Shown: positions 1 to 5,988 of the stretch, in pieces | Layout of the letters: each line of letters starts with the position of its first letter | Position numbering within the stretch: the first letter of the stretch is position 1 | Source of the DNA: a virus | Taxonomy: Duplodnaviria; Heunggongvirae; Uroviricota; Caudoviricetes | DNA length: 5,988 nucleotides | IMG/VR virus record: IMGVR_UViG_2778260995_000009 | Location: 1 to 5,988 of that record | Direction: 5' to 3' (one strand) | Notes under the pieces: model-generated | What the model was told of the DNA's origin: nothing | Seen by the model: only the letters and a program-made list of their open reading frames with translations | Databases searched by the model: none | Program-made: the position numbers and the translations under genes

Positions 1-582
1 GAATTATCGCTGGCTGAATTATCCTGGTGGGCGGTCTGCAATCAGGTGGCGGACGCGCTACCAGAGGCAGCATTACGCCGTTCGCTGGGGTTGCGTGCGG
101 AAAAAATCCGCTCAATGTACCGTGAAAGCGACATCGTACCGGGAGAGCAGACCGCCACCAGCATACTGAAGCAGCGCACAAAAAATATTGCGCCGTTGCC
201 TCACGCCCACCAGCAACAGAATCCACCACAGGAAAAGACGGTGGTCAGCATTGCCGTTGATCCGGAGTCACCGGCTCAGTATCTCCAGCGCCAGAAACCA
301 CAACGGGAAGAGATGCCTGTATACACGCGTTGGGTAAAAACGCAGAAATGCATGACGTGTGGCAATCAGGCAGATGATCCGCATCACATCATGGGTCATG
401 GACTGGGAGGGATGGGAACAAAGGCTGATGATTTGTTTGTTATTCCGCTGTGCCGTAAATGCCATAGCGAACTACACGCCGGGGTAAAAGATTTTGAAGA
501 AAAACACGGCAGCCAGCTGTTGTTGCTGATTCGTTTTTTAATGCACGCGAGAAATTCGGGTGTCCTGAAGTGGAAAGCATGA
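1..582 (+). CDS. NinG/DUF968-like phage protein with HNH-type zinc-finger motif (5' partial; frame is open from base 1)
   Basis: Frame 1 has no stop from position 1, so the gene begins upstream of the window. C-terminal motif CMTCG...DDPHHI...PLCRKCHSELH is a Cys/His HNH-like signature typical of DUF968 proteins found before rusA in lambdoid prophages. Stop TGA at 580-582 overlaps the rusA ATG region. Confidence 0.6.
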   Translation, partial: ELSLAELSWWAVCNQVADALPEAALRRSLGLRAEKIRSMYRESDIVPGEQTATSILKQRTKNIAPLPHAHQQQNPPQEKTVVSIAVDPESPAQYLQRQKPQREEMPVYTRWVKTQKCMTCGNQADDPHHIMGHGLGGMGTKADDLFVIPLCRKCHSELHAGVKDFEEKHGSQLLLLIRFLMHARNSGVLKWKA

Positions 583-948
583 ATGACTGAACGCATAGAA
601 TTTGTTTTGCCTTACCCGCCAACGGTGAACACTTACTGGCGACGTCGTGGCAGCACATATTTTGTATCAAAAGCCGGTGAGCGTTATCGCCGTGATGTGG
701 CGCTTATTGTTCGCCAGCAGCGACTGAAATTAAACCTGTCCGGACGGCTGGCGATAAAGATTATTGCAGAGCCACCGGATAAACGTCGTCGTGACCTGGA
801 CAATATCCTGAAAGCACCACTGGATGCGCTGACGCATGCCGGACTTCTCATAGACGACGAGCAGTTTGATGAAATCAATATTGTGCGCGGTCAGCTCGTT
901 CCTGGGGGGCGGCTGGGCGTGAAGATTTACAAAATTGAGAGTGAGTGA
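583..948 (+). CDS. rusA: Holliday junction resolvase RusA (crossover junction endodeoxyribonuclease)
   Basis: 121 aa, with LPYPPTVNTYWRRRG near the N-terminus, PDKRRRDLDN, DALTHAG, IDDEQ and GGRL matching my recollection of E. coli RusA (120 aa) including the acidic catalytic cluster. ATG at 583 immediately follows the upstream stop. Confidence 0.9.
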   Translation: MTERIEFVLPYPPTVNTYWRRRGSTYFVSKAGERYRRDVALIVRQQRLKLNLSGRLAIKIIAEPPDKRRRDLDNILKAPLDALTHAGLLIDDEQFDEINIVRGQLVPGGRLGVKIYKIESE

Positions 949-1502
949 TCGTAAATATGATATACCCGGAAATTACAGGCAAAAGCGGCGAGCATTTACG
1001 TCTAAAAACGCTGGAAGCCGTCTGGATCCAGGGGAAATTACGGATGTGGGGGCGTTGGTCGTACATAGGTGGTGGCAAACCAGGAAATATGTTCAATCAG
1101 TTGCTGGCATCCAAAACACTTACAAAAACTGCGATCAATGAAGCTCTGCGCAGAATAAAAAAATCAGGGATTGATAAAACTGAGCTGGAAGCGTTTTTGC
1201 GTGAGATGATCAACAGCAAGCAAAAGAGCGGGCTGGCTTATTGTACTGATGCCGAGGCGTTATGTATCGATCGGGTAATTAGTGAAGTGTTGGCAGAGCA
1301 TCCGGGATTGATTTGTATCCTCCGACAAAGATATGAAGGGCTGGGTATGAGCAAGCTGAAAATGGCAGAACAGTTAAAAAAGAATCACCCTGACTGGAGC
1401 CTGAAAACTTGTAGAAATCGCATTGATGTTTGGTTGGCGATGGCTGAAACCATGCTTTTCCTTCCAATGTGCGTGGCACTTCGGTGCTTTTCTGATAACT
1501 GA
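945..1502 (+). CDS. Late-gene antitermination protein Q (phage 82 / DLP12 QuuD-like family)
   Basis: Position directly after rusA. Motifs W..W near the N-terminus, CTDAEALCIDRV and a C-terminal helical region resemble QuuD-type Q proteins. Start is uncertain: GTG at 945 overlaps the rusA stop, alternative ATG at 957. Stop TGA at 1500-1502. Confidence 0.7.
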   Translation: MIVNMIYPEITGKSGEHLRLKTLEAVWIQGKLRMWGRWSYIGGGKPGNMFNQLLASKTLTKTAINEALRRIKKSGIDKTELEAFLREMINSKQKSGLAYCTDAEALCIDRVISEVLAEHPGLICILRQRYEGLGMSKLKMAEQLKKNHPDWSLKTCRNRIDVWLAMAETMLFLPMCVALRCFSDN

Positions 1503-1531
1503 TGATAGAAGTGCATCAGCTATCAATCTTG

Positions 1532-1560
1532 TTGACGTTCATCAAGGTCTGGACAATACT
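1532..1560 (+). promoter_or_regulatory. Sigma70-like promoter candidate: -35 TTGACG (1532-1537), 17-bp spacer, -10 AATACT (1555-1560)
   Basis: Hexamers and spacing read directly from sequence; lies between Q stop and the ATPase start. Could be the cassette's own promoter or the Q-dependent late promoter pR'. Confidence 0.3.
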
Positions 1561-1591
1561 TACGTTAAGTTCCAACATATGGAAGATAAGA

Positions 1592-2782
1592 ATGATATTT
1601 ACACGATTGAGATTTATCAATTTGTACGCTTTTGAGGATGCAGAGCTTAACCTGTCCTATCCAAGGAAACCTGTAAACATGCCTCTTGATGGGGAGTTTT
1701 TGGCTGGACGGCCTAAATTTTACTATAAAAAAGTCTGTATCATAACGGGGGGAAATGCTTCAGGTAAGACGTCACTAGGGCGAATTCTTTGTGGAATTCA
1801 GGTGTTTCTAAGAACCAAAGAGTTGCGGAGTAATCTGCGAGTGAATAATAAAAATAATGATGCTTCGTTTGAAGTGGACTTTGCTACGGAGGATCATTTT
1901 CATCATCGTTTGTATGTACGCTTTGCTACCAGTGAAGGCGGAGCGCACATAATCAAAGAAATTAAATATGGTTTTGTTCAAATAGCATTAAATGATTCTT
2001 GCCATAAAACCACAGAAAAACTGAATCAACTCTTTTCTGGAAGGGCCCCAGAAGATACAGAATATTTTTTTCAGGAACTAGCTACTGATAGCGAACCAGT
2101 TGTATTGGAGTTTTTCAAGCAACTTAAGTTTTTTGGTGGATGGTACTATTTGTTGTCTGAAACTAAAGAGAGTACCACTGCAATTTCAGGAATGAATAAA
2201 AATATTCTTGAAAGGATAATTCGCACTTTCGATTCAAGTATTATAGGAGTTACCGAGATGCTGGAGTCTGAAAGTGACGGGGATGAAAATAAATCATCTG
2301 CGGTTTATCTGATTAAATTTAAAAACTCTGATTCTCTTGTCGTTACCAGTAAAGGTGAAATAATTAACTCAGACCGTCTTTCTCGAGGAACATACGAGGC
2401 AGTGACGGTAGCGCATTTTATAAGCGCTATTATCTCTGATTGTGAAAGACTAGGTAAGCAATCTCTAATACCATCAATGACTTATTTTCTTGACGAGAAA
2501 TTGGCTTATACACATTCAGAGTTAGAGCGTATGATTGTGGCGCTGATTATATCTAATTTGAAAGAAAATACTCAGTTTTTCTATACAACGCATAACATGG
2601 ATATTTTTGAGTTGGATCTGCCTGTTCACTCGTTCATTTTTATTAAAAAAACGAAAGACTATTCGGAGTTTGTTGAAGCAAATTCAGTTGTTAAAAAAAA
2701 TGACCGTAGCATGCGAAACGCTGTTGAGAGAGATGTCTTTGGTGTCTTACCTGACACATCATTAGTATCGGAGCTACTCTGA
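1592..2782 (+). CDS. ABC/OLD-family P-loop ATPase (AAA_15/AAA_21-like), component A of a candidate two-gene defence cassette
   Basis: Walker A GGNASGKTS (codons at 1748-1771), Walker B YFLDE (2483-2497) and H-loop-like YTTHN (about 2581-2595) in the order expected for ABC-type ATPases. N-terminus MIFTRLRFINLYAF fits the usual start of this family. GGAAG Shine-Dalgarno at 1581-1585. The ORF track's 1502 start adds 30 implausible hydrophobic residues overlapping the promoter-like element. Gene is markedly AT-rich. Confidence 0.8.
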   Translation: MIFTRLRFINLYAFEDAELNLSYPRKPVNMPLDGEFLAGRPKFYYKKVCIITGGNASGKTSLGRILCGIQVFLRTKELRSNLRVNNKNNDASFEVDFATEDHFHHRLYVRFATSEGGAHIIKEIKYGFVQIALNDSCHKTTEKLNQLFSGRAPEDTEYFFQELATDSEPVVLEFFKQLKFFGGWYYLLSETKESTTAISGMNKNILERIIRTFDSSIIGVTEMLESESDGDENKSSAVYLIKFKNSDSLVVTSKGEIINSDRLSRGTYEAVTVAHFISAIISDCERLGKQSLIPSMTYFLDEKLAYTHSELERMIVALIISNLKENTQFFYTTHNMDIFELDLPVHSFIFIKKTKDYSEFVEANSVVKKNDRSMRNAVERDVFGVLPDTSLVSELL

Positions 2783-3315
2783 TGGCGGGGTTGTCTAAAA
2801 TAAGAATAATTTTTGTCGAAGGTGAAACAGAAAACTCTCTTTTTCTGAAGATGAAACAACAGAGAGTTATTGATGCCAAATCAATTGTAAAAAGAAACTT
2901 TTGGCAAGAGAGCATAAGAAATTATGCGATTACTATTCCGAAGGGAAGTGATATACTAATTGTCTTTGATAGTGATGAAGTGGAGCAATCTGCAAGATTC
3001 ATTGAAAATGTAAAGTTCCTTAAAAACAGAGGGCATAAAGTTTATCTTTTGCAGCAGAAAAGAAATTTTGAGGAGGAGTTGGCCTGGTGTTGCGGAATTC
3101 CTGTAAAAAAACTAATTGCTGGGTTCTGTGCAAAAAAAACATCGGGTATAAATGATTTCAAGAGAGATTTTATTGCTTGTAACAATCAACTTTCAAAGTT
3201 ACTGAAAATGGGCATGCAGGAAACTAAGTGGTTTACAAGAGATTTACATGCTGTATTGGAGCCTGTTGCAAGTTTTAAGTCATCTTTTTCTAAACATTTC
3301 AGGTTAACAAGATGA
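2782..3315 (+). CDS. Small TOPRIM-like protein (RloB/DUF4276/AriB-like nuclease candidate), component B of the defence cassette
   Basis: 177 aa. N-terminal IIFVEGETE (conserved Glu codons at 2818-2820 and 2824-2826) followed by ILIVFDSDE (DxD) matches the TOPRIM Glu plus DxD metal-binding arrangement. Start ATG overlaps the ATPase stop (TGATGG at 2780-2785); GGAG Shine-Dalgarno at 2770-2773. AT-rich like the ATPase. Confidence 0.7.
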   Translation: MAGLSKIRIIFVEGETENSLFLKMKQQRVIDAKSIVKRNFWQESIRNYAITIPKGSDILIVFDSDEVEQSARFIENVKFLKNRGHKVYLLQQKRNFEEELAWCCGIPVKKLIAGFCAKKTSGINDFKRDFIACNNQLSKLLKMGMQETKWFTRDLHAVLEPVASFKSSFSKHFRLTR

Positions 3316-3597
3316 TTTATTTTCTTTTTTGTTCAGCTGATTGTTTTTGTTTGTAAAATGTCTTGATTTTTTGCCAATAAACTGTTTCAATCCAGCTACG
3401 CTTCGCAAAGCTGTACCGCGAGGCGAATAGCAGACATGGACACCTGAAAGAATCCGCTTTATGCGAGTTTTTTTATGCCTGAAAAACGGCACAGAACATT
3501 AAACGCGCTGGTAGTTGTGAATACTGGTCTTTCAGCTTGCTGGCTTTTTCGACAAGAGGTATTGGTATATCACGTTAACCAGAAAAGGGGAAAAGGC

Positions 3598-3795
3598 ATG
3601 CTAAAACAGCAGGATATGACCGAAACCGCCAGAGTGGTGTTTAATGAATTAAGCGTCACCGAACCGGCGACCGTCGGGGAAATTGCGCAGAATACTTACC
3701 TTTCACGCGAACGCTGCCAGTTAATACTGACTCAGCTTGTTATGGCGGGTCTGGCAGATTATCAGTTCGGTTGTTACAGACGCCTTCCTCAGTGA
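3598..3795 (+). CDS. Small hypothetical protein (65 aa) with predicted helix-turn-helix / winged-helix character
   Basis: ATG at 3598 preceded by purine-rich Shine-Dalgarno AAAAGGGGAAAAGG. Segment TVGEIAQNTYLSRERCQLILTQLVMAGLA looks like an HTH recognition unit. The track's longer ORF from 3475 has no RBS and an implausible N-terminus. Fold assignment is inference only. Confidence 0.45.
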   Translation: MLKQQDMTETARVVFNELSVTEPATVGEIAQNTYLSRERCQLILTQLVMAGLADYQFGCYRRLPQ

Positions 3796-3850
3796 AGGTT
3801 TTTTAATTTGTGGTAATGGGCGGCTGGTGGGTGTTAGCGGCACCTGCCAG

Positions 3851-3899
3851 CCATCTGCTCATGCGTTGGGGTCACAAGCAAACCTCAGGCCCATCTGCT
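3851..3899 (+). repeat. Two direct repeats CCATCTGCT (3851-3859 and 3891-3899), 40-bp period, each followed by (A)TGCG
   Basis: Read directly from sequence; located in the intergenic region between the small HTH gene and the methyltransferase start, so possibly operator-like sites. Confidence 0.3.
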
Positions 3900-3945
3900 T
3901 TGCGCAAAAGCGGTATGAGCCTATCAGAGAAGTGCTTATTGATCT

Positions 3946-4995
3946 ATGGCCAATACTGTAAAAATATCCAGTTGTGAGTTAATCAACGCTGATTGCCTGG
4001 AATTTATCCAGACCTTACCGGAAAATTCTGTCGATCTGATAGTCACAGACCCGCCATACTTTAAAGTGAAGCCCGAGGGCTGGGATAACCAGTGGGAGGG
4101 CGACGATGATTACCTGAAATGGCTGGACCAGTGTCTGGCGCAGTTCTGGCGGGTACTGAAGCCTACCGGAAGTCTTTACCTGTTCTGTGGTCATCGCCTG
4201 GCATCTGACACCGAAATCATGATGCGTGAGCGCTTTAATGTGCTGAACCACATTATCTGGGCGAAGCCGTCCGGACGCTGGAACGGGTGCAATAAGGAAA
4301 GTCTGCGGGCGTATTTTCCGGCAACAGAGCGCATTCTGTTTGCAGAACATTATCAGGGACCGTATCGCCCGAAAGATGATGGCTATGTGGCACAGGGGCG
4401 CGAGCTAAAACAGCACGTCATGGCCCCGCTGATTTCTTACTTTCGTGATGCGCGTAAATCACTGGGAATAACGTCAAAACAGATAGCGGAAGCCACCGGA
4501 AAGAAAAACATGGCTTCGCACTGGTTTGGTACCAGTCAGTGGCAGTTACCGAACGAGGGTGATTACAACAAATTGCAGGCGTTGTTTGCGCGTGTTGCGG
4601 CAGAAAAACATCAGCGCGGGGAACTGGAAAAGCCACACCACCAGCTGGTCAGCACATACAGTGAGCTGAACCGGCAGTATACGGAACTGCTGAGTGAATA
4701 TAAAAATTTGCGGCGGTATTTCGGTGTGACGGCGCAGGTTCCGTACACCGATGTCTGGACGCATAAACCGGTGCAGTACTATCCAGGGAAACATCCGTGC
4801 GAAAAACCGGCAGAAATGCTGCAGCAGATAATCAACGCGAGCAGTCGTCCGGGAGACCTGGTTGCAGATTTTTTTATGGGTTCAGGTTCAACGGTAAAAG
4901 CGGCGATGGCACTGGGGCGTTGTGCGATTGGTGTTGAGCTGGAGACAGGACGTTTTGAACAGACAGTCAGGGAAGTTCAGGATTTAATCGTTTGA
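3946..4995 (+). CDS. DNA N6-adenine methyltransferase (beta-class, motif IV before motif I), phage orphan-type
   Basis: DPPY catalytic motif near the N-terminus (VTDPPYF) and FxGxG SAM-binding motif near the C-terminus (DFFMGSGST). This order and spacing is typical of phage-encoded N6A methyltransferases. An in-frame TGA immediately upstream fixes the start at 3946. Confidence 0.85.
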   Translation: MANTVKISSCELINADCLEFIQTLPENSVDLIVTDPPYFKVKPEGWDNQWEGDDDYLKWLDQCLAQFWRVLKPTGSLYLFCGHRLASDTEIMMRERFNVLNHIIWAKPSGRWNGCNKESLRAYFPATERILFAEHYQGPYRPKDDGYVAQGRELKQHVMAPLISYFRDARKSLGITSKQIAEATGKKNMASHWFGTSQWQLPNEGDYNKLQALFARVAAEKHQRGELEKPHHQLVSTYSELNRQYTELLSEYKNLRRYFGVTAQVPYTDVWTHKPVQYYPGKHPCEKPAEMLQQIINASSRPGDLVADFFMGSGSTVKAAMALGRCAIGVELETGRFEQTVREVQDLIV

Positions 4996-5044
4996 AACGG
5001 ATGAGATTGCAGAATTAATTACGCACCATTATTATTCTGCTCCC

Positions 5045-5120
5045 GGCCCTTTAGCTCAGTGGTGAGAGCGAGCGACTCATAATCGCCAGGTCGCTGGTTC
5101 AAATCCAGCAAGGGCCACCA
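5045..5120 (+). tRNA. ileZ: tRNA-Ile2 (anticodon CAU, lysidine type; ileZ-like), 76 nt with encoded CCA
   Basis: Hand-folded cloverleaf: acceptor GGCCCTT/AAGGGCC, D arm GCTC/GAGC, anticodon loop CTCATAA (CAT at 5078-5080), T arm GCTGG-TTCAAAT-CCAGC. Resembles E. coli ileX/ileY. CAU could also be Met; Ile2 is inferred from similarity. Confidence 0.85.
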
Positions 5121-5127
5121 TCACATA

Positions 5128-5204
5128 CCGCCATTAGCTCATCAGGATAGAGCGCCAGCCTTCGAAGCTGGTTGCGCGGGGTTCGAGTCCTCGATGGCGG
5201 TCCA
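5128..5204 (+). tRNA. argN: tRNA-Arg (anticodon UCG), 77 nt with encoded CCA
   Basis: Hand-folded: acceptor CCGCCAT/ATGGCGG, anticodon stem CCAGC/GCTGG with loop CTTCGAA (TCG at 5162-5164), T arm CGGGG-TTCGAGT-CCTCG. The C1-G72 start is unusual, so the 5' end could be off by 1-2 nt. Gene symbol assigned by position only. Confidence 0.75.
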
Positions 5205-5217
5205 TTATCTGTACCCT

Positions 5218-5294
5218 GCGTTGTTAGCTCAGCCGGACAGAGCAATTGCCTTCTAAGCAATCGGTCACTGGTTCGAATCCAGTACAACGCGCCA
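5218..5294 (+). tRNA. argO: tRNA-Arg (anticodon UCU), 77 nt with encoded CCA
   Basis: Hand-folded: acceptor GCGTTGT/ACAACGC, anticodon stem ATTGC/GCAAT with loop CTTCTAA (TCT at 5252-5254), T arm ACTGG-TTCGAAT-CCAGT. Gene symbol assigned by position only. Confidence 0.8.
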
Positions 5295-5444
5295 CGCTTA
5301 TTTTTCCAGGCTCGCTTTGGCGGGTCTTTTTCATATCCGCGTCACGTCAGGCGCACATCAAACAAACACAGAATCTTTCAGGGGCGGGGTAGTCAGTGTG
5401 ACGTTCTCTGGAGACCTGTCACTTCCGGGGATAGGTGTTTTTAC

Positions 5445-5468
5445 GGGCTGCTGGTGGCCCTTTTTTAT
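5445..5468 (+). terminator. Possible intrinsic terminator: GGGC...GCCC short stem followed by TTTTTTATTT
   Basis: GGGCTGCTGGTGGCCC (5445-5460) then a T-run at 5461-5470. The stem is only about 4 bp, so this is weak. Confidence 0.25.
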
Positions 5469-5485
5469 TTACAGGAGAAAGAAGT

Positions 5486-5878
5486 ATGTCTGAACCCTTA
5501 TCCGGTTCCGGTACGGCTGCGGCGCTCGGCGGGGCGACGGTATTCGGGCTGTTTACCGGAACGGATTTCGGGATTGTGTTTGGTGCATTCGCCGGGGCGT
5601 TGTTCGTGGCCACGATGCCGCAGGCGTTTTCAGGCTGGCGAGTGGCAGCACATTTTCTGGTGTCATTTATTGTTGGCGTGCTGGGTGCACGTGCGTTGTC
5701 AGCCTGGGTTGCATCAAAAACAGGTTATGACGGTACATCGGCGGATGCACTGTGTGCGGTGCTGGTGTCAGTGATGTCGGTAAAGATTCTGGCATTCATC
5801 CACCAGCAGGATATTGCAGCGCTGATATCCGGTTTGTTCTCCCGCCTGCGGAGTGGAGGTGGTGGCAATGCCAGATAA
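5486..5878 (+). CDS. Hypothetical Gly/Ala-rich membrane protein, possible holin-like lysis protein
   Basis: ATG at 5486 with strong Shine-Dalgarno AGGAGA (5473-5478). Several hydrophobic Gly/Ala-rich stretches (GGATVFGLFTG, IVFGAFAGALFVA, FLVSFIVGVLGA). Sits where lambdoid phages place lysis genes. No specific family recognised. Confidence 0.45.
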   Translation: MSEPLSGSGTAAALGGATVFGLFTGTDFGIVFGAFAGALFVATMPQAFSGWRVAAHFLVSFIVGVLGARALSAWVASKTGYDGTSADALCAVLVSVMSVKILAFIHQQDIAALISGLFSRLRSGGGGNAR

Positions 5879-5988
5879 CCTTTCTGAATTACTGAACGTG
5901 GCGTTATGCACGGTTATCGTGCTGACGCTCTTTTTTTATCGTCGCCGTGATTCCAGACATAAACCGCTGGTGTCATGGCTGGCCTGGC
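5866..5988 (+). CDS. Small hypothetical membrane protein (3' partial, runs off window), start overlapping upstream stop
   Basis: ATG at 5866 overlaps the preceding gene's 3' end (stop TAA 5876-5878). Hydrophobic stretch VALCTVIVLTLFFY followed by RRRDSRHK fits a single-pass membrane topology. Not in the ORF track because it is truncated. Confidence 0.3.

Follow-up and report, generated by a model that had tools for sequence, protein, structure and literature searches.

The published group of systems that combine an ATP-binding cassette (ABC) ATPase of the AAA15/21 kind with a TOPRIM protein comprises Old, Gabija, retron-linked systems, PARIS (DUF4435), AbiL (RloB) and MADS3-4 (DUF4276) (PMC11464382, PMC13064643). 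In PARIS, AriB is sequestered by a hexamer of AriA until the phage protein Ocr releases it, and as a dimer it then cleaves tRNA-Lys (PMC11464382). Old of phage P2 is also a tRNase, which cleaves tRNA once activation has opened its TOPRIM site (bioRxiv 10.64898/2026.07.10.737580). Pairs of an AAA antitoxin with a TOPRIM_OLD toxin have been validated as well (PMC10440598). The cassette described here, genes A and B, occupies positions 1592-3315 of a 5,988-nucleotide stretch of viral DNA (Caudoviricetes; IMG/VR record IMGVR_UViG_2778260995_000009, positions 1 to 5,988), which is called the window below. The window belongs to a Rac-like lambdoid prophage and has all its genes on the plus strand. 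With a probability of about 0.65, the cassette is a two-gene AbiL-type anti-phage module carried by the prophage as accessory cargo. It is very probably a divergent member of the known AbiL/PARIS/Old kind of system rather than a new kind.

The two genes and their junction are as follows.

1592-2782, plus strand: gene A, a 396-amino-acid ABC-type ATPase (AAA_15/AAA_21, SMC/Rad50/OLD-like), AbiLi-like
2782-3315, plus strand: gene B, a 177-amino-acid protein concluded to be a compact TOPRIM protein of the OLD/RloB type
2770-2784, plus strand: junction of genes A and B, read from the sequence, with a GGAG Shine-Dalgarno element and a stop/start overlap in TGATG

A preliminary description, made from the letters of the sequence, had given these coordinates and lengths correctly. 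It called the pair a candidate defence system, and this is the right level of claim, backed by the conserved pairing of the two genes and by their placement in defence hotspots and mobile elements.

Comparison with described systems

The nearest named system is AbiL, which was among those listed in the preliminary description as sharing this architecture. AbiL of L. lactis (AbiLi and AbiLii; RloA/RloB) has the same order of overlapping or adjacent genes, ATPase and then nuclease, and the same combination of an AAA_15/21 ATPase with a separate TOPRIM protein of the RloB type (PMC11464382, PMC13064643, PMC10440598). Both the ATPase profile and the gene order of AbiL are found here. AbiLi is the best profile for A and for all of its relatives, and AbiLii, matched weakly by B itself, is the only defence profile that recurs in the B family. 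The similarity is nevertheless remote: A scores 87 bits on AbiLi and B 17 bits on AbiLii, and the best relative of B reaches an E-value of 5.9e-7. Lactococcal AbiLi is larger, about 453 amino acids (PMC13064643), compared with 396 for A. The two systems also differ in host, in carrier (a plasmid there, a prophage here) and in the phages targeted. Lactococcal AbiLii is nearly 300 amino acids long. The suggestion that B might be an undescribed variant was overstated, as UniRef already lists a 99%-identical protein as 'RloB domain-containing' and the AbiL architecture has been published (PMC11464382, PMC10440598).

PARIS resembles the cassette in its split ABC ATPase and TOPRIM nuclease and in its frequent location in prophage and satellite hotspots, and A and its relatives match the AriA profiles. 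AriB, however, is a 35-kDa DUF4435 protein, whereas B is a protein of 20 kDa. AriA (53-55 kDa) has helical insertions that build the hexamer, whereas A has 396 residues and an insertion predicted to be mainly beta. DUF4435 (PF14491) is not among the families listed for 163 relatives of B, and there is no AriB model among the PADLOC matches. The scores of A, 30.3 bits for AAA_15 and 22.2 bits for AAA_21, lie below the thresholds of 32 and 27 bits used for the PARIS ATPase by Rousset et al. Membership in PARIS was rejected because DUF4435 is missing.

P2 Old, TsOLD, BpOLD and GajA have the same two modules, and profile alignment (hhalign) places A on the ATPase motifs of Old and B on its TOPRIM region. 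The catalytic layout of BpOLD (E, E, DxD, E, K) appears to be common to B, and homologous A-B pairs occupy the very locus where P2 has old. The OLD proteins are, however, single polypeptides of about 590-630 amino acids, whereas two open reading frames with a stop codon between them are present here, and the OLD C-terminal region is about twice as long as the catalytic region of B. The single polypeptide of Class 1 OLD proteins is thus not found. Gabija (Class 2 OLD) differs further in its UvrD-type helicase; no GajB-type helicase partner accompanies the pair, and the window contains no helicase.

Septu and retron PtuA-PtuB, and WonAB/PD-T4-4, follow the same logic of an ABC ATPase with a small nuclease, and the fold of A is as good a match to PtuA as to Rad50. 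The nuclease in these systems is an HNH (PtuB) or PD-(D/E)xK (WonB, PD-T4-4_B) protein and not a TOPRIM protein. The identity of the pair with WonAB or PD-T4-4 was rejected on the latter ground.

Structure and conservation of the two proteins

Gene A encodes an ABC ATPase that belongs to the AAA_15/21 (OLD/AriA/PtuA/AbiLi) group and is closest to AbiLi. The motifs quoted in the preliminary description are all present in both proteins, and their residues are either fully invariant or conserved to at least 90% among 59 relatives of A (35-90% identity) and 141 relatives of B. In A, the sequence GGNASGKTS occupies residues 53-61, and the last three of the motifs listed here could be aligned with those of P2 Old:

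1748-1771, plus strand: Walker A (P-loop) G53-GNASGK-T60; N55, G58, K59 and T60 invariant, G53, A56 and S57 at least 90% conserved
2375-2392, plus strand: ABC signature-like motif R262-LSRG-T267; R262, S264, G266 and T267 invariant; placed by hhalign on P2 Old RFGHGT
2483-2497, plus strand: Walker B Y298-FLDE-302; D301 and E302 invariant; aligned to P2 Old IFIDE
2582-2596, plus strand: H-loop Y331-TTHN-335; Y331, T332, H334 and N335 invariant; aligned to P2 Old STHS

Profile searches had been proposed earlier as a check on both proteins. The PADLOC profile AbiLi (PDLC02335) matches residues 3-390 of the protein at positions 50-288 of 326 of the model (E 3.4e-25, 86.8 bits), and it is the first match in all 59 relatives, the best at E 6e-32. 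Further PADLOC matches are mad3 (E 4.5e-11, residues 46-110, the P-loop region only), AriA (E 6.5e-8), PDC-M12A and PtuA. The AlphaFold2 model has a predicted local distance difference test score (pLDDT) of 88. A Foldseek search of the PDB with it returned Rad50 and PtuA, both at E 4.4e-10, the SMC head and TsOLD (E 7e-8). For the stretch of about 115 residues that links the P-loop lobe to the signature, largely beta strands are predicted, along with two short helices and no long coiled coil. The sequence of A gave only a chance-level match to T4 topoisomerase among PDB chains (E 0.5). NCBIfam gave no meaningful match for A or B, and in PHROGs they fall in the unknown-function families phrog_5836 and phrog_10204.

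The open frame of A runs from 1502 to 2782 (426 amino acids) and gives 396 amino acids from the ATG at 1592. The start at 1592 is favoured because the homologues are about 395-400 amino acids long and their first methionine aligns with this ATG; RefSeq also gives 396 amino acids. The 426-amino-acid form, from the ATG at 1502, is common in database records and overlaps the stop codon of the preceding gene, a Q-like gene, in TGATG. At the other end, the junction reads CTC TGA TGG, in which the stop codon of A (TGA, 2780-2782) and the start codon of B (ATG, 2782-2784) overlap by one nucleotide, and GGAG lies 8 nucleotides upstream of the start of B. Judging from this overlap and ribosome-binding element, translational coupling of A and B is plausible.

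Gene B has a TOPRIM core of about residues 1-95, followed by a short helical part (residues 96-177). The translation contains EGETE at residues 13-17 and FDSDE at residues 62-66. The conserved elements, scored among the 141 relatives, are:

2818-2832, plus strand: TOPRIM glutamate motif E13-GETE-17 at the end of strand 1; E13, G14 and E17 at least 90% conserved
2968-2976, plus strand: DxD motif D63-S-D65 at the end of strand 3; D65 invariant, D63 at least 90% conserved
3064-3078, plus strand: N95-FEEE-99 at the start of the first helix after strand 4; N95, E97 and E99 at least 90% conserved; proposed second-metal ligands
3160-3162, plus strand: K127, in the helix 123-132; F126 and K127 at least 90% conserved; proposed counterpart of the OLD catalytic lysine

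The residues conserved at 90% or above are E13, G14, E17, N39, D63, D65, N76, Q92, N95, E97, E99, F126 and K127. The two-metal site of BpOLD is formed by E400, E404, D455, D457, T506/E508 and K562 (PMC6755086). The conserved residues of B occur in the same order and at the same secondary-structure positions, and the spacing of E13 and E17 matches that of E400 and E404 (PMC6755086). By this correspondence, N95/E97/E99 would be the counterpart of T506/E508, with which the helical domain of BpOLD begins, and K127 that of K562, so that B would carry a complete two-metal active-site set of E13, E17, D63, D65, E97/E99 and K127.

The model of B (pLDDT 90.6) has the strand-helix order of a TOPRIM fold, with E13 directly after the strand 8-12 and D63xD65 at the end of the strand 57-63. 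A fold search with this model, which had been suggested as a test of the TOPRIM assignment, found nothing significant in the PDB (Foldseek); the longest structural alignments, none of them significant, were to GajA and BpOLD. Among 22 close relatives of B, 18 match AbiLii (best E 2.8e-6), 12 OLD-like_TOPRIM, six RloB and three DUF3226. Among the 141 distant relatives, AbiLii is matched by 42 (best E 5.9e-7) and RloB by four, at weak E-values; matches to OLD-like_TOPRIM, OLD-like_TOPRIM_1, DUF3226, Toprim, Toprim_2, GajA and ATPase-Toprim_I-B also occur. All Pfam scores of the relatives are under the cut-offs. The best PDB sequence match of the family profile is the Toprim protein 1t6t (E 0.068), and the sequence of B itself has no match among PDB chains. 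When the B family was aligned by hhalign with the 586-amino-acid P2 Old, residues 8-160 of B fell on residues 394-550 of Old, the TOPRIM region (E 8.9e-4), with VEGETE on VEGKTE and DSD on DCD in the same register. Since the profile matches of the relatives, the alignment with P2 Old, the strand order of the model and the conserved residues all agree, it is concluded from these individually weak lines that B is a compact TOPRIM nuclease of the OLD/RloB type with a short helical extension.

The preliminary description considered B shorter than a typical RloB protein. This is barely so (177 residues compared with 195 positions of the Pfam model), and the length is not unusual. As the family measures about 165-185 amino acids and the RloB model only 195 positions, the size of B is the family norm and not that of a shortened oddity.

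Both genes are under strong purifying selection. Relative to a homologous pair with 81% (A) and 74% (B) nucleotide identity, the ratio of nonsynonymous to synonymous substitution rates (dN/dS) of A is 0.036; for B the proportion of nonsynonymous differences (pN) is 0.127 and that of synonymous differences (pS) is saturated at 0.83.

Insertion in the prophage and distribution of the pair

The cassette is cargo of the prophage, as the preliminary description had proposed. The remaining features of the window are:

46-582, plus strand: 3' end of a DUF968/HNH gene
583-948, plus strand: RusA
945-1502, plus strand: Q-like DUF1133 protein, also above the threshold of Pfam Phage_antitermQ
1398-3354, no strand: variable segment (insertion) with the cassette, from BLASTN against the cassette-less prophage of E. 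coli E2865
1532-1560, plus strand: candidate cassette promoter TTGACG-17-AATACT, from a consensus scan (9/12 matches, weak)
3598-3795 (longer open reading frame from 3475), plus strand: conserved gene of 65 amino acids, WP_000917767.1, phrog_331
3946-4995, plus strand: N6/N4 DNA methyltransferase (Pfam N6_N4_Mtase E 6.5e-45; PADLOC MTase_II E 3.7e-159)
5045-5294, plus strand: three tRNAs
5435-5878, plus strand: holin

Homology to the E2865 prophage is restricted to positions 1-1397 (92.6%) and 3355-5361 (97.0%). The insertion of 1957 bp, which takes the place of 172 bp of the cassette-less backbone, has a guanine-plus-cytosine content of 0.364, compared with 0.497 in the left and 0.512 in the right flank. 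It is not flanked by notable repeats. The replaced part takes in the last approximately 105 nucleotides of the Q-like gene (1398-1502). Its last 35 or so codons arrived with the cassette and are unlike the cassette-less allele; a hairpin followed by a T-run is found at 1475-1498, inside this new 3' end.

Positions 1400-3500 are 99.4-100% identical to seven complete E. coli genomes, among them that of the enterotoxigenic E. coli (ETEC) strain B7A, in which the two genes occupy 3296319-3298042 of NZ_CP035812.1. The cassette occurs in only these 7 of 5426 complete E. coli genomes, whereas the right flank is present in 2163 of the 5426. In five cassette-less prophages that were sampled, the antiterminator gene and the 65-amino-acid gene are separated by about 225-310 nucleotides with no cargo between them. 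The cassette is therefore a rare moron-type insertion and not part of a busy hotspot; the idea that this gap is a general cargo hotspot was rejected, as it is empty in all five. The earlier placement of the cassette in a moron-type slot downstream of a Q-like gene is correct, but its identification with the slot of stx is not: the cassette lies after the Q-like gene and ahead of a conserved region that precedes the 65-amino-acid gene, the methyltransferase and the tRNAs. The stx genes of Stx phages sit elsewhere. The conserved region, about 240 nucleotides at 3355-3597, may hold a late promoter and a qut site.

In 30 of 30 related loci with upstream DNA, from three phyla, an ATPase of the A type lies directly upstream of B. 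In each of the 18 fetched loci with upstream DNA, the B-family gene begins where the A-family gene ends or overlaps its end, and the same order is found among the called genes of further loci (Fusobacterium, Ruminococcaceae and others). Homologues of both proteins are numerous, and the B family in particular is large. An exhaustive profile search yielded 602 representatives at 50% identity, of which 368 had E <= 1e-10, and a word-indexed search yielded 927 clusters at 90% identity. The listed members are nearly all about 160-190 amino acids long, apart from a few shorter fragments and one of 212 amino acids, and none of them is fused to an ATPase. A Pfam domain is annotated on only 3 of 120 listed clusters. 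The hosts are Enterobacterales, Pasteurellales, Burkholderiales, Acinetobacter, Fusobacterium, Butyrivibrio and Ruminococcaceae. Among deposited phages and plasmids, relatives were found only in Acinetobacter phage Ab105-3phi and in one Acinetobacter plasmid.

The contexts of the pair elsewhere form a pattern typical of mobile defence cargo. In Klebsiella, the pair lies between portal gene Q and replication gene A of P2-like prophages, the locus in which P2 itself carries old and tin. This gpQ/gpA locus was shown by Rousset et al. to be a defence hotspot (PMC9122126). The pair adjoins a prophage integrase in another E. coli lineage, in Gilliamella and in Acinetobacter phage Ab105-3phi, and it is located beside serine recombinase and Mob genes in Ruminococcaceae and beside a transposase in one further genome.

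Several individual loci deserve description. In Fusobacterium animalis (locus 1-5501), an A/B pair of 362 and 166 amino acids follows a complete Gabija system at a distance of about 1.6 kb. The Gabija system consists of a 691-amino-acid GajA-like protein (AAA_15 and OLD-like_TOPRIM) followed by a UvrD helicase; two unannotated genes separate the systems. In Oligella urethralis (locus 991-7706), three pairs of an ATPase and a small protein stand in tandem. The A/B-family pair (395 and 173 amino acids) is the last of them, and only its small protein matches the B-family profile; the others are a pair of 427 and 145 amino acids and an AAA_15/21 ATPase, split by an insertion sequence, with a protein of 166 amino acids. 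The array looks like a cluster of different nuclease-ATPase systems. The closest non-identical pair (Logan ERR10124956, 6001-7724) is 90% identical in A and 76% in B; of the two genes, B has evolved far more rapidly since the copies separated. That pair has an ordinary chromosomal setting near dbpA, with a ttcA-like ATP_bind_3 gene on one side and a Usp gene on the other, and no prophage genes were found in the 9.3-kb locus, which reaches 6 kb beyond the pair upstream and about 1.6 kb downstream. This neighbourhood is presumably the Rac attachment site of E. coli K-12.

Some further observations concern the neighbouring genes and the rest of the prophage. A terminator scan gave counts not above those in shuffled sequences, with no clear terminator 3' of gene B, and an Rfam scan of the window returned nothing beyond the three tRNAs. 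These have a CAT anticodon (tRNA-Ile in RefSeq, Met in ARAGORN), Arg-TCG and Arg-TCT, and we take the trio to be a cluster of the ileZ-argN-argO type, common in lambdoid prophages. The cassette-less relatives carry one to three tRNA genes of varying identity at the same position. It is curious that one prophage carries both tRNA genes and a possible tRNase cassette, since effectors of the OLD family can be tRNases whose effect is rescued by phage tRNAs; nothing links the two here. The 65-amino-acid gene has weak TrmB/MarR winged-helix matches and is labelled 'TrmB family transcriptional regulator' in one genome. The methyltransferase is an orphan with no adjacent restriction gene. The B7A prophage also encodes RacR/YdaT-type immunity genes and, upstream of the nin-type region, a ParE/RelE-ParD pair (9156-9718 of that locus).

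Proposed mechanism, alternatives and significance

The mechanism proposed for the AbiL-type module, whose role in defence is itself inferred, is modelled on PARIS, P2 Old and the NetFlax AAA/TOPRIM pairs, and each of the following steps is argued by analogy with them. A and B would be made together from their overlapping genes and would form a complex in which a dimer or oligomer of the ATPase holds the nuclease inactive. The ATPase, predicted to be the sensor or regulator subunit, would sense a cue of phage origin (a protein or an aberrant nucleic-acid structure) and would then free or activate B, the predicted metal-dependent nuclease effector. B would cut an essential nucleic acid, most likely host tRNA, with a stop of translation, or alternatively DNA, and the infection by the competing phage would be aborted.

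A number of results weigh against this interpretation. B itself has no Pfam match, including no DUF4435 at E <= 1, and its only defence-profile match is a weak one to AbiLii (E 0.0015, 17.2 bits). The RloB scores of its relatives are 16-17 bits (model positions 2-88 of 195), compared with the gathering cut-off of 31.5 bits for Pfam RloB (PF13707), which neither B nor its relatives reach. Every single homology test for B is thus below threshold, and the TOPRIM case, including the acidic metal-binding set claimed in the preliminary description, is convincing only in aggregate. For A, Pfam AAA_15 is matched at E 4.4e-7 with 30.3 bits, just under the cut-off of 32.1; AAA_21 (22.2 bits, threshold 27) and SMC_N are also sub-threshold, and no conserved Q-loop glutamine was identified in the alignment of 59 relatives. 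The promoter-like site at 1532-1560 is weak, and such sites are no commoner in the region than in shuffled sequences. The related systems also differ from one another: GajA and TsOLD cut DNA in vitro, whereas AriB and P2 Old cut tRNA, and the ATPase of WonAB can activate its partner rather than sequester it as an antitoxin would (PMC12137116). A literature search by RefSeq accessions and PHROG identifiers found no paper on the pair or its family and no experiment.

One alternative concerns the substrate. A and B might form an ATPase-nuclease complex that targets phage DNA, as GajA, TsOLD and BpOLD do in vitro, rather than an abortive tRNase, and protection could then occur without cell death. 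The residue set of B appears to be the same as the two-metal set of the DNA-degrading BpOLD, the longest structural alignments of B are those to GajA and BpOLD, and enzymes of the OLD family nick and degrade DNA in vitro (PMC10568477). On the other hand, the two members of the family with a worked-out substrate in vivo, AriB of PARIS and P2 Old, cleave tRNA, and B has no extra DNA-binding domain. The sequence does not discriminate between tRNA and DNA as the substrate of B, and a DNA-targeting complex is considered rather unlikely. A further proposal is that the pair is mainly a toxin-antitoxin addiction module, with B as the toxin and A as the antitoxin, which stabilises the prophage or island and senses no phage. 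Toxicity-neutralisation assays with NetFlax validated AAA antitoxins with TOPRIM_OLD toxins (PMC10440598), the pair is always on mobile elements, and the same prophage already has a ParDE pair. Such a role and defence are not exclusive, however, as PARIS behaves as both (PMC13064643), and the fully invariant catalytic motifs of the ATPase exceed the needs of a simple antitoxin. The P2 defence hotspot and the Gabija neighbour point to defence. An addiction module without defence is considered quite improbable.

The genomic setting bears on two other proposals. The cassette is surrounded by genes of the nin-region type (DUF968-HNH, RusA and Q-like), which would suit a role in the prophage's own life cycle, in replication, recombination or DNA processing, such as that of primase or RecR TOPRIM proteins or of RusA. 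This is very improbable: the backbone is present in 2163 genomes and the cassette in only seven, the pair moves among unrelated carriers (P2-like and lambdoid prophages, an Acinetobacter prophage, Firmicute elements and plain chromosomal sites), and its best profile matches are defence proteins. The methyltransferase gene, 630 nucleotides downstream of the pair, could be taken to indicate a methylation-linked system of the MADS or restriction-modification kind, particularly as A matches mad3 and a few relatives of B match mad4 weakly. The methyltransferase with the same neighbours is, however, found in 4 of the 5 cassette-less prophages sampled, and because it has the same position there, it belongs to the backbone and is not specific to the cassette. 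There is no methyltransferase beside the pair in related A-B loci, and the mad3 match is confined to the P-loop region. Membership in MADS was rejected on the partial mad3 match, the backbone origin of the methyltransferase and the absence of a mad1-mad8 locus, and a methylation-linked function of any such kind is barely credible.

A broader proposition about the family goes beyond the AbiL-type module and is held tentatively, at somewhat less than even odds. The pair may represent a distinct and widespread two-gene family, a minimal split OLD system of Proteobacteria, Fusobacteria and Firmicutes that Pfam misses. It would combine a 20-kDa TOPRIM protein carrying the whole two-metal site with an ATPase of about 45 kDa, in which a beta-rich insertion replaces the coiled coil of the others, and it would have a trigger and a (t)RNA or DNA target of its own, unlike PARIS, Old and lactococcal AbiL. 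If this is so, the models of defence-finding programs probably miss the family as well.

The general picture of ATPase-TOPRIM systems is unchanged by the pair, which is not surprising to a specialist and is worth an experiment. If active, it would be a compact and easily cloned addition to the group of Old, Gabija, PARIS, AbiL and MADS3-4. B would then be about the smallest OLD-type nuclease with a full catalytic set, useful for structural work on the gating of a nuclease by an ATPase. The large B family has essentially no Pfam annotation, and surveys of defence systems probably undercount it. Within E. coli, the cassette is a marker of a few ETEC-type strains (B7A and its relatives), whose sensitivity to phages it may shape.

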